Source of the DNA: Psammoneis japonica
Taxonomy: Eukaryota
NCBI GenBank assembly: GCA_008632985.1
Contig: QPGO01000032.1
Span: 493,330 to 557,329, forward strand
Reading direction: 5' to 3'
Length of the DNA stretch: 64,000 nt
Shown: piece by piece, positions 6,950 to 48,595 of the stretch
How the letters are laid out: every line of letters starts with the position of its first letter
Numbering within the stretch: the first letter of the stretch is position 1
Notes under the pieces: generated by a model
Database searches by the model: none
What the model saw: only the letters and a program-made list of their open reading frames with translations
What the model was told of the DNA's origin: nothing
Translations under genes and position numbers: made by a program

Positions 6950-8559
6950 GGCGGTTTTGACGATTTTGTGAGACCTTGATGTTGTCGCTGTCACCGATTT
7001 TTTGATGTTTGTTCCTGGACGTTCCTGCGAGAAGTACGTCAGCGCATGATGAGTTCGTTGCTGTTCGAGCGCCACTATGAACAGCCCATGTTCGCCTAAA
7101 TGCCACACCGGTACATAGTTTCCATGTCGATTGGCAGTAGTACCCGGTAGGCCGCGCCGTCTGCCGTACTTGATCACTAATACTACATTTGTGCGCTGTG
7201 CGCCATGGTGGAATCGAAATCATCATCATCAGGAGATCGGAGATCGTTTTCGCTCTCAAAGGTCCGTCCGTCTCCCGAACAATCGATTTCCGCGCAATAA
7301 AATAAAAAAGTGTGCGAAAATTTTAAAATTTTGATCAAGACAATGAATGCATGCATGGTGGACGCATGGCCTTCGCCTTCACATGCTTGTTTCGAGTGTC
7401 CCAGAAAATGACAAGCTGTGGGAGCTTGTGACCACAGAAGCAACAGCAAACTCCAGTGTGAAACAAGAGCACTCTCACCTTCTTCATCGCCAGTGCCACA
7501 AACTCGAAAGCTTGCAAAAAACACAAGTTGCGCCCTTTTGCTGCACCTGCACTCTTTTCCCACAAGATCTGCCTGTCATGTGGTGGAACCAGAGCACTCT
7601 CATCATGGTCACTGCCACCACCAACTCAAAGTGTGGAAAAAAGTGTGCCCTTTTGTGGTGTTTGTGATGTCTCCAAGACATCTCCTGGCTGTTGTGTGAT
7701 GGACTTTGACCACTTGTCCCACGGTTGCACACGCCATGCAAATTCTGAGCTGCGCAAATTTGACAGAGCAACTTCTGAACTGTTTTTAACACTCCATGAA
7801 CCACAACCTCTTTCAGCCATTTAGAACCCAGCAATTGTTAAAAGCAAACCAACGCAGCTGACACTCAGCATCGGCGGCACATGAAAAAACAAATTTTCAA
7901 TGTTCTCGCTGCTTTTCACTCTCACCAGCTTGTGATCTGCTGCTTTTCCACCTCTCTTCCAGTTGCCAATCATGCAAAAATGATCTTGTCAAATCACAAA
8001 GACTGTGCTCTGACTGTTTGAGCTTCTGCTCCTCATCCAAAAGAGTCATCTGCCCCACTTCCACGTGGATCCACCCGGTTGATCGTCTGAAACCGCGGCT
8101 GTTGCTGTCATCGGATGCGCAATCCTTTGGTTGTGATCAGGACCCAATCACCTGAGTCCTGTGCAAATCTTGTTCCATGACAAGCAAACATGCTGTGCTT
8201 TCTTAGAAAGTGCCGCATCCTCCAGTTTTTGGTGCGGCGATTCACGGCTGCTGCTGTGGAAAAGGCAGCGCAACAGTTTTCTGGACAAAATGCTCAAGTC
8301 AAATTGTTCCTGATTTCTTGGTCATTGCTTCTGCCATCCACATGTGAAAAGTCATGCTGTTGTGCTTTTGGCACATCTTGTTGCTGCAGCATGCCAGCTG
8401 CACTGGAGAAGGGTGTGACACCACAGTCTCTCTGCAGAGTGCAGCTCCAGCAAGTGACAGTTTTGCCAGGGTTTGGAATTTCCAGCAGCAGAGTGTCAAT
8501 GACTTGGTGCCAAGCATGCCCAGCGGAACTCCTTGAAGGGCTGCCGACACACATCATTG

Positions 8560-9700
8560 GGATTGTCACAGCTCATCACGTTGCTCCAACGCAAAATGAG
8601 CACGAAAGCAGCCATGCTGCTAGAGTGTCAGTGCACAAGTGCAAACACAACCCTTGTGTGCATGTTGCCTTTGTCTTTGCCCGCTTTGCTCTGTGCATCT
8701 TTGCATTCAGAACCACTTCAATCACATCGGCCTCCTCCAAAACACTCCGAGTGTCAACTGTTTGTGTTTCGTTGCCGGGACCCGGCAAAGGAACGCCGAT
8801 CGTTGAGTTTTTTGAGAAAAACACAGTCTCTTTTTCTTGTTTGTAGACAGCCACAACCTTTGCAATTGAATCGAATCCTTTCTTTGTGGCATTTCATGGC
8901 TTGGCAAAATCCCCCATTGCTCGAGACTTGTGAAACGGACCTGGCTGGTTTGAGCTGCTTTTGCAGCAACCTCAACACAGTCTTCCCACTGCGTCGTGCT
9001 TTTGGCTCAATTGTCGCCAGAAGAGGACAGGCAACACAAATGCAGTCAGCGTCTGCATTGGCGAGTGCCTCTTCTTCATTTGCTGGGATGGCCAACATGG
9101 GCTCAACATCACAGTTTGATGGGCCGCATCGTTGACAGTCCCTCAGGTGGCAACAATTCAACAAGTGATCTGTCATGATGTTGAACGCTTGGCAGCAACT
9201 TGGCAATCGTTTTGCAAGAAATTGGTGGGTGCAGCACATGAAGCGCTCATTCACCGCACCCACTGGACTGTCCAATGTGTCCATGAACAATCTGGTGCCA
9301 ACACAACAGTTGCCATTTTGACATCCTGGCAAACACCACACGGGGTCGTAGCCAGCGGGAGTGTTTTGCTTTCCGAGAAGGTCGCACCACTTCTCACATT
9401 TGCTGTTGGTGTCACAGTTTGGGAACGATGACGTTCCAGGTCCACACCAGCATTCATCGCCAAGCCCAAACAACAAATGGGCCAGTTCATGGATTGCAAC
9501 CAGTGGTGCTCAAGGGTGTGTTGACACTGTTGTGATGTTTGAAGTCATGCAGCCACCACCTCCATGGAGCCCAGAACAAGGGCTGCTCACGCCTGCAGGA
9601 AGATTCAAGACATCCATGAAGGATTTTGACCCAATGAAAAAGATGCCATTGCAGCACCCAGGCAGACACTTTGCAGGTTCATGAGGAGCTGGCGTGTTTT
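8560..9700 (-). pseudogene. Degraded paralogue (C-terminal part) of the M64-peptidase-like gene
   Basis: HELAHLLFGLGDECWCGPGTSSFPNCDTNSKCEKW...FMDTLDSPVGAVNERF aligns with the copy at 22.6-23.5 kb. Confidence 0.75.
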
Positions 9701-9976
9701 TTTCATGGGTCCTTCCACTTGTTGCATTTTCCAGTTGAACCACAACTCGGATCATCGTCAGTTGCCGGTCTGCATGTGTGCTCATTGTTGAGCTTGAACA
9801 GCGAGTGACCCAATTCATGTGCTGCCACCAGAGCAGCGCTCAGATGCACCACGGATGCAACTGCCATGTTGGAAAATGTGCACCCAGCTCAGACAATTGC
9901 TTTGCTGCCAGCCTGCAGTGGCTCAAGCATTTTCATCTCGATGCACAGGTGGTCTGATTTTCTTCCTGTTTTAAAT

Positions 9977-10555
9977 TCAGGGCTGTCTGCTGATCATCCT
10001 CTCAAAGCCAATCTCACCCAACTTCTTTTTCCTCTGTGGATCCATGGTCAATTCTCTGGCTGGCATATCTTTGCATTTGATTCTCTGGTTGTGAACCCAG
10101 TTGCCAATGGTCTTGTCTTCCTTCCATTTCCTTGGCATGTTGCAATTGCCGTGGATGTTGACATGCTCTTTCAACTTCTCGCACTGTGACATCCACTTCA
10201 CCTCCTGTGGCGCATTCTTTTTCTTCTCTGCACGAATTGCAAGTGGCTTCACACCCAAGTTGACAAGCATCTCCTTGCACTTGGCATCGAGCAAACCAAA
10301 CTTCATCAAGTGTCTCTGCTTGCTCAACCAACTCGCAAGTGCTCTCATTGTGGTGGGGTTGCAGAGAAGTCCAGTTTCTTCATGAATTGCTTGCAGCTGC
10401 TGAAACTTCAATTTCCACTTCTTGTCATTTGACACATGATGGACTGGAGTTGACTTGCAGTTGACACTTTCGAGGAGCCCAATTTGATCCTTTCGAAGCA
10501 TCTTTGCTCGGCGTCGTTGGCAGGTCAACCATTTCGCTAGATTTGCAAATTTCAT
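9977..10555 (-). pseudogene. Helicase-associated (HA, PF03457-like) repeat protein remnant
   Basis: Three HA-type repeats, e.g. KWMSQCEKLKEHVNIHGNCNMPRKWKEDKTIGNWVHNQR..QRKKKLGEIGF. Expected Tyr positions are Cys/His. Confidence 0.75.
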
Positions 10556-10639
10556 GATGTGCTCAGCATTGAGTGCTTTGCTTGTGAGATTCTCTTATGA
10601 CCAGCACATGCAACAGTGTGGTTGTGCAGTTTGTTTGTG

Positions 10640-47448: not shown

Positions 47449-47478
<30 letters not shown>
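47449..47478 (+). repeat. (GCA)n microsatellite
   Basis: About 10 perfect GCA units. Confidence 0.9.
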
Positions 47479-47481
<3 letters not shown>

Positions 47482-47803
47482 CAGCTGCCACTCCTTTTCT
47501 CTTTTCTGCATCCATTTGGCTTGCAGCCAGTGTGCTCACCCCAGTGCTGGCTTGGTCCATCAGACAAGGTCAAGGTGCCCATTCTGCTGCAAAGACCATC
47601 TTTGAACTGACCAAATCAAGCTCTGTTGCAACACTGTGCTGGAGAGTTTCCTGTCACATCCCTCTCAATGTGTCCCTGCACAAAAGTTTCCTCATGTCTT
47701 TCACCATCTGGCTTGATGTGGGCACCCAGTTCCATGGCACACTCTGTTTGTAAATTCACCCCACGCATTTTTGACACCTGCCAGTGCCGCGAAATCAGCC
47801 ACT

Positions 47804-48102
47804 NNNNNNNNNNNNNNNNNNNNNNNNNNNNNNNNNNNNNNNNNNNNNNNNNNNNNNNNNNNNNNNNNNNNNNNNNNNNNNNNNNNNNNNNNNNNNNNNN
47901 NNNNNNNNNNNNNNNNNNNNNNNNNNNNNNNNNNNNNNNNNNNNNNNNNNNNNNNNNNNNNNNNNNNNNNNNNNNNNNNNNNNNNNNNNNNNNNNNNNNN
48001 NNNNNNNNNNNNNNNNNNNNNNNNNNNNNNNNNNNNNNNNNNNNNNNNNNNNNNNNNNNNNNNNNNNNNNNNNNNNNNNNNNNNNNNNNNNNNNNNNNNN
48101 NN
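47804..48102. other. Assembly gap
   Basis: Run of N. Confidence 1.
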
Positions 48103-48595
48103 CCACTCACAACTTTCCCAAAAGCAACAAATTTGATGATGGCATTTCCATCTGCTCTTTCCAGCAGAGCTGTGCTCCTCTGCCTTGTCAAGGTCATGCT
48201 CATCCATGGTTTGAGAGGCACAGTGAAGAAATCAATGCTTGCAACAAAAGAGCTGAGATGACAAATGATGTGACTTTCTGCTGCAAACGCCAAGGAGAGG
48301 CAGCAGGAGGAGGGGGCATCGTGTCACATGACTCGGCTCACACTTTTTGCTTGCTCATGGATTTTGTTGTTGTCGAATCATGCCAGGACTGCATTTGCCG
48401 CTCCAATGATCCATGGAGTCCATGTGGATGTCAATGACCTGTTCATGATGATTTGTCTGGCAAAGCAGGATAACAGCCAAAGGAAATTCGCTCAGCCAAT
48501 TGCGCTCTGGCCGTCAACCGGAATCCAGAAAAAAGCAACCATGATGTGACACACATCGCATTATTGTTGCCCCCATATCGTCACTCAGAAGCACC

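Follow-up and report, generated by a model that had tools for sequence, protein, structure and literature searches.

Mutational genome defence has until now been known mainly from fungi, as repeat-induced point mutation (RIP), and from animal deaminases that act before integration. The first report of a TpA-specific A:T>G:C process in DNA already resident in a genome dates from 2026 and concerns a single rhizarian alga, with fewer than 250 de novo mutations. The available portion of that preprint (Mettrop et al., bioRxiv 10.64898/2026.01.13.699255) describes TpA hypermutation of integrated viral DNA in Bigelowiella natans, where 231 of 302 nuclear mutations in accumulation lines fell in two integrated viral regions, and 230 of these 231 were A>G or T>C, all of them on TpA. 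The rate, measured directly, was about 6e-7 per site per generation; it was episodic, raised roughly 1000-fold and seen in some lines only. TpA-depleted coding sequences of B. natans carried an excess of reverse transcriptase and DDE transposase domains, the enzyme put forward by the authors is an ADAT2-like deaminase, and the text available to us names no diatom or stramenopile (10.64898/2026.01.13.699255). Here we describe a TpA hypermutation signature in a 64,000-nt stretch of Psammoneis japonica contig QPGO01000032.1 (the window; all coordinates are window positions). It contains three islands of transposon-derived or otherwise foreign-looking DNA in a nuclear genome, among them a copia-type long terminal repeat (LTR) retrotransposon.

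Loss of TpA from three islands of the window

Scanning TA in 1-kb windows and in 250-base counts across the window delimited three depleted islands, at about 7330-26400, 28630-37600 and 41250-48500. Pooled, the islands contain 188 TA among 34,590 dinucleotides (observed/expected ratio, O/E, 0.091), against 1,202 of 28,704 (O/E 0.616) in the flanks, that is, the remainder of the window (Fisher p = 1.4e-229). By block, TA O/E was 0.05 (7330-14480), 0.10 (copia element, 14485-21584), 0.14 (21585-26400), 0.13 (28600-37500) and 0.04 (41250-47800), and 0.55, 0.82, 0.59 and 0.62 in the flanking blocks. TG (O/E 1.55-1.82) and CA (1.40-1.93) were raised in the same blocks compared with 1.04-1.27 in the flanks, and AA/TT, at 1.07-1.31, was not depleted in the islands. 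Tyr made up 0.0-0.7% of residues in island open reading frames (ORFs) and 1.0-4.2% in flank ORFs. An earlier reading of this DNA, made from the sequence only, had described blocks poor in TA and rich in TG and CA beside normal genes, as these counts confirm. Equal depletion of unique non-coding DNA, which that reading had named as the outcome that would speak against it, was not found: the unique spacer 26500-28500 has a TA O/E of 0.82, so unique non-coding DNA is without depletion. We have hardly any doubt that the TpA depletion is real.

Four island edges are sharp, with the last dense TA at 7324, 28627 and 41225 and the first dense TA at 48562 (the third of these edges spans about 41230-41370), while two are graded, at 25000-26400 and 37200-37630. 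Island edges lie within about 100 bases of host genes. Within this window, TA loss is confined to foreign or transposon-derived regions and the rest is normal, in line with the earlier claim of a signature confined to transposon-rich islands adjoining normal genes. CpG was also low in the oldest-looking sub-blocks (O/E 0.26 at 7330-14480 and 0.28 at 41250-47800) and near normal in the copia element (0.84), a deficit to which the sequence-only reading had given no emphasis.

Only TGA stops are left in the islands, TAA and TAG having been erased, and open frames of 200-780 codons overlap on both strands (for example, the minus-strand frame 16230-17972 and the plus-strand frame 16234-18570). Overlapping frames of this kind can mislead gene prediction. 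For annotation it matters that, with two of the three stop codons erased, hypermutated elements retain very long frames that contain no Tyr and go undetected by Pfam models.

The direction of change could be read from conserved Tyr codons. The copia polymerase ORF was aligned with 18 homologues of normal Tyr content, and columns with at least 60% Tyr were taken as conserved. At these 15 columns the window element has Cys nine times, His four times, Phe twice and Tyr never, while other conserved residues of the polymerase are retained (His 11/11, Trp 7/7, Phe 11/12 and Leu 35/37). Likewise, the 31 Tyr residues of P0121, the only good homologue of the island 2 ORF (36% identity), align in the 1087-aa ORF of that island to His (10), Cys (10), Tyr (1) and other residues (10). 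As TAY>TGY gives Cys and TAY>CAY gives His, TA is ancestral and both strands were struck about equally (Cys:His of 9:4 and 10:10, respectively; TG:CA about 55:45). The change is therefore TA to TG or CA, an A:T>G:C transition that can strike either of the two base pairs in the palindromic TA. Both points had been made from the letters alone, and they hold in the two ORFs; the ancestral state is confirmed as well by the polarised spectrum of a second copia family (below).

Because both LTRs of one insertion are identical at integration, the copia LTR pair dates the process. The pair differs by 22 mismatches in 276 bases, 19 of them within TA/CG/TG/CA interchanges: five pairs of TG versus CA (both bases), three TA versus TG or CA, and six CG versus TG or CA, with three other differences; one of the 22 is a transversion. 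A single TA, in TTAG context, is retained in both LTRs. A TG/CA pair requires two independent changes, one in each LTR, of an ancestral TA (or CG), and, since 17 CG are retained in both LTRs against six single CG losses, CG accounts for well under one such pair. On these counts the TG/CA pairs are taken to be converted TAs, and we estimate that there were about 14 ancestral TAs and that conversion reached about 82% of TpA lineage-sites, compared with about 13% of CpG and about 0.75% of other sites. In older island parts TpA loss exceeds 90%. As the LTRs have diverged in their TA/TG/CA states, the DNA was already integrated when the process struck it, and CpG decay is much the slower of the two.

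The tandem units agree with this. Those of island 2 differ at 99 of 4374 bases, of which 94 are transitions and five transversions; their 66 variable pyrimidine-purine (YR) dinucleotides comprise 24 TA versus TG or CA, 24 CG versus TG or CA, and 18 TG versus CA. The units of island 3 show 18 TG/CA double differences. The change thus occurred in place, at the DNA level, after integration, and the LTR pair and the tandem units bear out the sequence-only view that it is not reverse-transcription error.

We compared the window with a public run, X1, which contains 87% of sampled words of 5001-15000. Its contigs were built from exact 31-letter words and aligned to 1001-21000 with a likeness threshold of 85%; at a word depth of about 57-69 they agree with the window in being TA-free (Table 1). 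Over 6262-14509 there were 10 base differences in 6,974 bases, and of the six differences listed at 7678-9324 none restores a TA. Where the DNA is unique, the two differ by single-base indels (12 gaps over 4,489 bases), which marks X1 as a different, more accurate read type than that behind the assembly; its support is strong, though not fully independent. Independent support comes from metagenome contigs whose dataset names are unlike that of the window, which bear the same signature in another copia family. There was no RNA run among those listed as containing 5001-15000. That a modified base at TpA was systematically miscalled in long reads and passed into the assembly, an artefact that the sequence-only reading had proposed to check, has in its favour the one-base indels and CpG/TpG differences that separate the window from X1, which are those expected of a long-read assembly with incomplete polishing. 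Given the TA-free X1 contigs at a depth of about 60 and the metagenome contigs with unlike dataset names, we regard the chance of such an artefact as negligible.

Many of the base differences between window and X1 are TG or CA in the window and CG in the reads; differences lie at 1210, 5034, 5130, 8643, 15980, 16328 and 19508. They look like residual long-read error at methylated CpG, or heterozygosity, and a small share of the window's CpG deficit may be technical.

A second copia family and the context of the changed site

Five of 268 copia-like proteins from two homologue searches have less than 1% Tyr with raised Cys and His (P0180, P0188, P0243, P0261 and P0294; Tyr 0-0.5%); hypermutated copia copies are already predicted as proteins in public databases. 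A homologue search with P0180 returned metagenome entries only, and P0294 as query yielded 80 metagenome loci, with about 65% DNA identity to the window copia. Whole-locus TA O/E across these loci is continuous from 0.01 to 0.77 (11 at 0.13 or below, 24 at 0.20-0.49 and 45 at 0.5 or above), and TG/CA climbs as TA drops; TpA loss in this unrelated family thus spans 0 to 100%. We aligned the matched parts of 58 of the 80 loci, the 22 at 67% protein identity or less being omitted for alignment reliability, and took as reference the majority state of 20 TA-normal copies. Of 19-27 reference TAs, between 0 and 4 survive in each of the 15 most depleted copies, where both TG and CA occur (14:11 and 11:15 in two examples); in one copy, L035, 25 of 27 reference TpA sites are now TG or CA.

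The polarised spectrum of this family, strand-symmetrised, shows how narrow the change is. A>G with a 5' T was found at 203 of 414 sites in depleted copies (49.0%) and 37 of 575 in normal copies (6.4%). The corresponding figures were 52/842 (6.2%) and 50/1160 (4.3%) with a 5' A, 76/1177 (6.5%) and 77/1643 (4.7%) with a 5' C, and 18/1156 (1.6%) and 41/1622 (2.5%) with a 5' G. A>G is restricted to TpA, and the adenines of ApA, CpA and GpA are spared. C>T at CpG was alike in depleted (42/392, 10.7%) and normal copies (65/564, 11.5%), so CpG loss is a separate process.

TG and CA outcomes are fully concordant only within four small groups of near-identical copies, concordance between groups being 0.42-0.81, and for several depleted groups the nearest relative by transversions is a TA-normal copy (L004, L072) or a partly depleted one. 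Hypermutated copies therefore fall into at least 10 separate groups. Two contigs switch along their length, L034 at about 1750-2000 and L046 at about 3750, from 14-19 TA per 250 bases to near zero, which resembles the sharp island edges of the window. L055 (matched part 604-1894) is strongly skewed, with 19 TG and 3 CA at reference TAs, whereas the ratio elsewhere is close to 1:1, a possible sign of strand-coordinated episodes.

Bases beyond the dinucleotide also matter. Surviving TAs of the window islands are enriched in YTAR, at 44% (TTAA), 58% (TTAG) and 26% (CTAG) of flank density, while ATAT and ATAC stand at about 1% and GTAC at 4%; reverse-complement contexts agree with each other. In the metagenome family we counted contexts at 25 sites in 38 related copies. 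TA was kept in 50 of 356 cases at RTAY sites (TG 128, CA 178), in 162 of 340 at YTAY (TG 118, CA 60, with TG exceeding CA at 10 of 11 sites), in 5 of 29 at the two RTAR sites (CA 23, TG 1) and in 20 of 36 at the one YTAR site (TG 8, CA 8). In this family, RTAY sites were lost first, ahead of YTAY. These counts point to 5'-TAY as the preferred motif, in which the changed adenine favours a 3' pyrimidine or, seen on the other strand, the changed T favours a 5' purine.

Elements and genes of the window

Features are collected in Table 1. The copia element of island 1 sits within older DNA with an HA-domain ORF and two paralogous M64-like pieces (8708-10594 and 22490-25289; 8708-9575 matches 22661-23492 at 72% identity). 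At 85% likeness or more, summed X1 depth over 7330-14340 is 62-130, against about 57 in flanking genes, which makes this part low-copy now. The copia element itself draws 12,691 X1 contigs in the placement over 1001-21000, and summed depth reaches 60,000-210,000 over 14341-21000, against about 57 for single-copy DNA; the window copia belongs to a very abundant, highly polymorphic family in the genome. Variant letters among its X1 contigs are mostly transitions (477 places, compared with 75 transversion places).

Table 1 Features of the window and X1 contigs placed on it
Feature	Position	Strand	Remarks
Left flank	1-7329		TA O/E 0.55; genes with Duc1, DEP and ABHD18 domains
ABHD18 gene	6216-6896	-	further ORFs to 7322; abuts island 1 edge
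X1 contig	6262-9268		5 other letters in 3009
Island 1a	7330-14484		TA O/E 0.05, CG O/E 0.26; old decayed DNA
M64/reprolysin-like fragment	9706-9888	-	Reprolysin_5, 7.7e-4
HA-domain ORF	9980-10594	-	Pfam HA, 1.3e-27
X1 contig	10511-13439		4 other letters in 2930
Gypsy-type RNase H hint	10566-10760	-	RT_RNaseH_2, E 0.0047, sub-threshold
X1 contig	13475-14509		1 other letter in 1035
Copia-type LTR retrotransposon	14485-21584	+	GC 56%, TA O/E 0.10, CG O/E 0.84
Copia LTRs	14485-14760 and 21309-21584		276 bases, TG...CA ends
Copia polymerase ORF	19484-21358		RVT_2, 1.7e-22
Island 1c	21585-26400		TA O/E 0.14; graded right edge from about 25000
M64-peptidase-like ORF	23268-25289	-	674 aa; Peptidase_M64, 1.6e-7; Tyr 0.7%
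Island 2	28484-37628	+	two 4.77-kb tandem units (28484-33255, 33256-37628), 97.5% identical
Island 2 ORF, unit 1	29397-31997		867 aa
Island 2 ORF, unit 2	33453-36713		1087 aa
R''S'', third copy of the unit's 3' part	37627-38991	+	just outside the mutated domain
Island 3	41129-48500		two tandem units (41129-44295, 44296 to about 47460), about 3.2 kb, 89% identical
Right flank	48501-64000		TA O/E 0.62; 2OG-Fe(II) oxygenase, protein kinase, DUF1295/ICMT, GAPDH, importin-alpha

A Pfam scan of the 248 island ORFs of at least 55 aa (E <= 0.01) left 242 without a match, a scarcity that is likely a consequence of the mutation itself. The long ORFs of island 2 have 0.1-0.2% Tyr, 5.1-5.4% Cys and 4.7% His and match no Pfam family. 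Their homologue P0121 has no match in PDB by sequence or profile and a weak, sub-threshold match to the MULE transposase family (E 0.19), so that a MULE-type transposase is possible. Island 3 also matches no Pfam family; it holds an assembly gap, a run of 299 N at 47804-48102, close to its right edge. The gypsy and piggyBac elements listed in the sequence-only reading did not fare well: the sole sign of gypsy is the sub-threshold RNase H match of Table 1, and piggyBac found no match in the scan. That reading had also seen no machinery gene in the window, and Pfam scans likewise show no deaminase, TET/JBP or Y-family polymerase domain among the window genes.

In the right flank, the best named relatives of the GAPDH are all diatoms, at about 70% identity. 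This makes the diatom host of the sequence-only reading a reasonable call, with a single protein as its basis here. The protein kinase domain at 50243-51304 (minus strand) extends over two neighbouring ORFs, which match profile positions 4-127 and 128-263; an intron or a single-base assembly error is the probable cause of the split.

Targeting, chemistry and relation to known systems

Segment R occurs in three copies, R (31903-32860), R' (36676-37628) and the adjacent R'' (37627-38580), the last being part of R''S'', which is 95% identical to 31903-33262 and to 36676-37628. R and R' hold 11 and 12 TAs and R'' holds 38; R''S'' as a whole has 48 against 16 in its depleted counterpart. YR interchanges account for 47 of the 54 variable columns of the three copies, the patterns (in the order R, R', R'') including TG,TG,TA ten times, CA,CA,TA eight times and TG,TG,CA five times. 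A few ancestral TAs are now CG (ATAC versus ACGC, in 41129-41271 compared with 44296-44438, and the R/R'/R'' pattern CG,TG,TA); here both base pairs have changed, which a strictly TpA-dependent single step cannot yield, and such sites may reflect two steps or a rare relaxed event.

These copies bear on how the mutated DNA is chosen. The sequence-only reading had called the signature repeat-restricted, and loosely this stands, in that the islands are rich in transposable elements; a repeat trigger is not borne out and is in part contradicted, with R'' spared, the first 150 bases or so of both tandem arrays escaping, and 7330-14340 at about single-copy depth. A RIP-like trigger, in which duplicated DNA is recognised by pairing and then mutated by whatever chemistry, could appeal to the repeats found in all three islands (high-copy copia, tandem units and paralogous M64-like fragments). 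It could also appeal to the array ends, where edge effects resemble the limits of a pairing-based process: the first 150 bases or so of the left-hand unit retain TAs in both tandem arrays, TA loss in island 2 beginning at about 28630, 150 bases into the first unit, and the first 100-240 bases or so of unit 1 of island 3 retaining theirs. Yet R'' has two 95%-identical partners within 6 kb and keeps its TAs, and the main hypermutable region of B. natans, in the available preprint text, is likewise single-copy, all of which makes the pairing trigger unlikely. Because edges fall near host genes, the single-copy-depth part is depleted and R'' is spared, we favour targeting by domain rather than by homology, and think it fairly probable.

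The signature of the islands is probably that of a mutational genome defence. We lean slightly towards the combined account of a TpA>TpG/CpA process that works through locus-targeted, domain-guided adenine deamination and disables elements; deamination of adenine as the chemistry, considered by itself, we put forward tentatively, as somewhat short of probable. An enzyme would act on the adenine of 5'-T-A-Y-3' in either DNA strand, deaminating it to hypoxanthine, which would then be copied as G, turning TpA into TpG or CpA. Recruitment would be by silencing marks on the islands (chromatin or small RNA) and not by repeat pairing. Tyr codons, TATA-like and AATAAA-like signals and TAA/TAG stops would be lost and the element permanently disabled, with CpG decay proceeding alongside as a separate, slower process. 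In the natural target of ADAT/TadA enzymes A34 is preceded by an invariant U33, and bacterial TadA reads U-A-C; the strict 5' T recalls the former and the 3' pyrimidine the latter, which makes a deaminase a candidate. A TadA/ADAT-like enzyme, as suggested in the sequence-only reading, would be compatible with these preferences; it would be a host-encoded protein of the CDA fold, with HxE and PCxxC motifs.

Other chemistries have to be weighed against deamination. The main one is oxidation of T at TpA in silenced DNA by a TET/JBP-type dioxygenase to 5-hydroxymethyl- or 5-formyl-uracil, bases that would pair wrongly with G or undergo faulty repair, giving T>C: TA being palindromic, all the results can equally be read as R-T-A with T>C, TpA and TpC are sites of 5-hydroxymethyluracil enrichment in dinoflagellates, and A:T>G:C mutations are known to result from 5-formyluracil. 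We know of no such enzyme or base from diatoms, however, and a literature search for work connecting 5-hydroxymethyluracil with TpA and diatoms found none. Near-exclusive transitions at close to 100% conversion are more typical of deamination, as oxidative lesions also yield transversions, which are few here (5/99 between the island 2 units, 1/22 in the LTR pair); we consider oxidation improbable, if a serious contender. Error-prone synthesis of the Pol eta type during repair of silenced DNA (WA>WG), the other candidate of the sequence-only reading, recalls the A>G changes after 5' T or A in vertebrate somatic hypermutation. It is disfavoured by the ApA counts, 6.2% in depleted copies against a background of 4.3% while TpA reaches 49% per strand, and by the undepleted AA/TT of the islands, and near-complete TpA conversion would be hard to attain by polymerase error; we hold it to be very unlikely.

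No more credible, in our view, is ADAR-like A-to-I hyper-editing of transposon RNA fixed by reverse transcription. ADAR favours a 5' U and, in the accessible preprint text, edits repeat-derived double-stranded RNA (10.64898/2026.01.13.699255), but the LTRs of one insertion diverged after integration by five TG/CA and three TA versus TG or CA states, both strands are hit about equally, non-retroelement DNA is affected (the possible MULE-type units, the M64-like ORF and intergenic parts), and the 3' preference is for a pyrimidine, not G. Two further processes were rejected: GC-biased gene conversion lacks TpA specificity, and selection against TA is at odds with changes that cost conserved Tyr residues and that are found in LTRs and spacers too.

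Several points weigh against deamination guided by domain and against the evidence we bring for it. TA is self-complementary, and from sequence alone it cannot be told which base of the pair, the A or the T, is attacked. In most substrates of eukaryotic ADAT2/3 the base following A34 is a purine, so that bacterial TadA is the better match to a 3' pyrimidine preference. The window holds no deaminase-type domain. The site-level context test comprises 11 sites only, and, since the copies of the metagenome family are related to one another, counts per copy lack independence. Copy number was judged at 85% likeness or more, at which old, diverged repeats would appear single-copy. X1 shares its sample with the probable source of the assembly, and may have served in the polishing of that assembly. 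The tandem units could in part be haplotypes joined as assembly duplications; in 28484-38991 the 950-base segment R is present in three distinct versions and a 3.4-kb segment X in two, and the three R versions favour at least one real duplication.

It is conceivable, though we would call it speculative, that diatoms and chlorarachniophytes, perhaps much of the stramenopile-alveolate-Rhizaria (SAR) group, share a chromatin- or small-RNA-guided DNA adenine deaminase as heritable immunity. If so, it would be a natural 5'-TAY-specific A-to-G base editor of double-stranded chromosomal DNA that permanently rewrites transposons and integrated viruses, a mirror of fungal RIP with another chemistry and trigger. 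A footprint in a diatom-like genome and in environmental contigs suggests that the process is widespread among ecologically dominant algae. The TpA O/E of transposons offers a simple genomic assay with which to survey it. The findings also narrow down which enzymes to look for; the one responsible could be an adenine editor that naturally works on chromosomal DNA.

The earlier statement that no description was known holds for diatoms, for which literature and full-text searches pairing diatom with TpA, hypermutation or RIP found no description of the signature; it does not hold more widely, given the 2026 report from a chlorarachniophyte (10.64898/2026.01.13.699255). The window represents the second lineage, and the first diatom-like one, with a TpA hypermutation signature, here saturated on ordinary transposons. 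As in B. natans, so far as the available preprint text goes, changes are almost only A:T>G:C, restricted to TpA and resolved as TpG or CpA by strand; one target region there is single-copy, as 7330-14340 is nearly so by depth. The hosts differ, a chlorarachniophyte (Rhizaria) there and a diatom-like stramenopile here, and so does the evidence, a rate measured directly in accumulation lines as opposed to an accumulated footprint. In B. natans the inserts of giant viruses and virophages that are the main targets show only mild depletion (Rho TpA 0.45) or even enrichment, whereas the window islands stand at 0.04-0.14. LTR and DNA-type elements are also targeted here, and the 3' context that refines the motif to 5'-TAY, the dating by an LTR pair and the per-copy independence given here are not in the part of the preprint's main text available to us.

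Like fungal RIP, the process is dinucleotide-specific, makes transitions only, strikes both strands, is regional, and permanently disables transposons, erasing their coding capacity. RIP, however, is C>T, mostly CpA>TpA, which creates TA and lowers GC; the islands destroy TA and raise GC, with conserved Tyr codons lost and TA-normal copies ancestral. RIP also depends on a RID-type cytosine methyltransferase and on premeiotic timing. It is triggered by duplication and hits both partners, whereas the window spares R'' (38 TAs against 11 and 12) and hits a low-copy part. CpG decay through 5-methylcytosine also gives TG and CA and is present in islands 1a and 3, but it cannot remove TA and is far less complete in the LTR pair (about 13% of lineage-sites compared with about 82%). 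Animal ADAR and APOBEC likewise direct deaminase-type hypermutation at selfish elements, and ADAR shares the taste for a 5' U. Those enzymes act before integration, on RNA or single-stranded cDNA and on one strand, APOBEC giving C>T; the island changes, by contrast, arose in DNA already integrated, affect both strands and extend to sequences other than retroelements.

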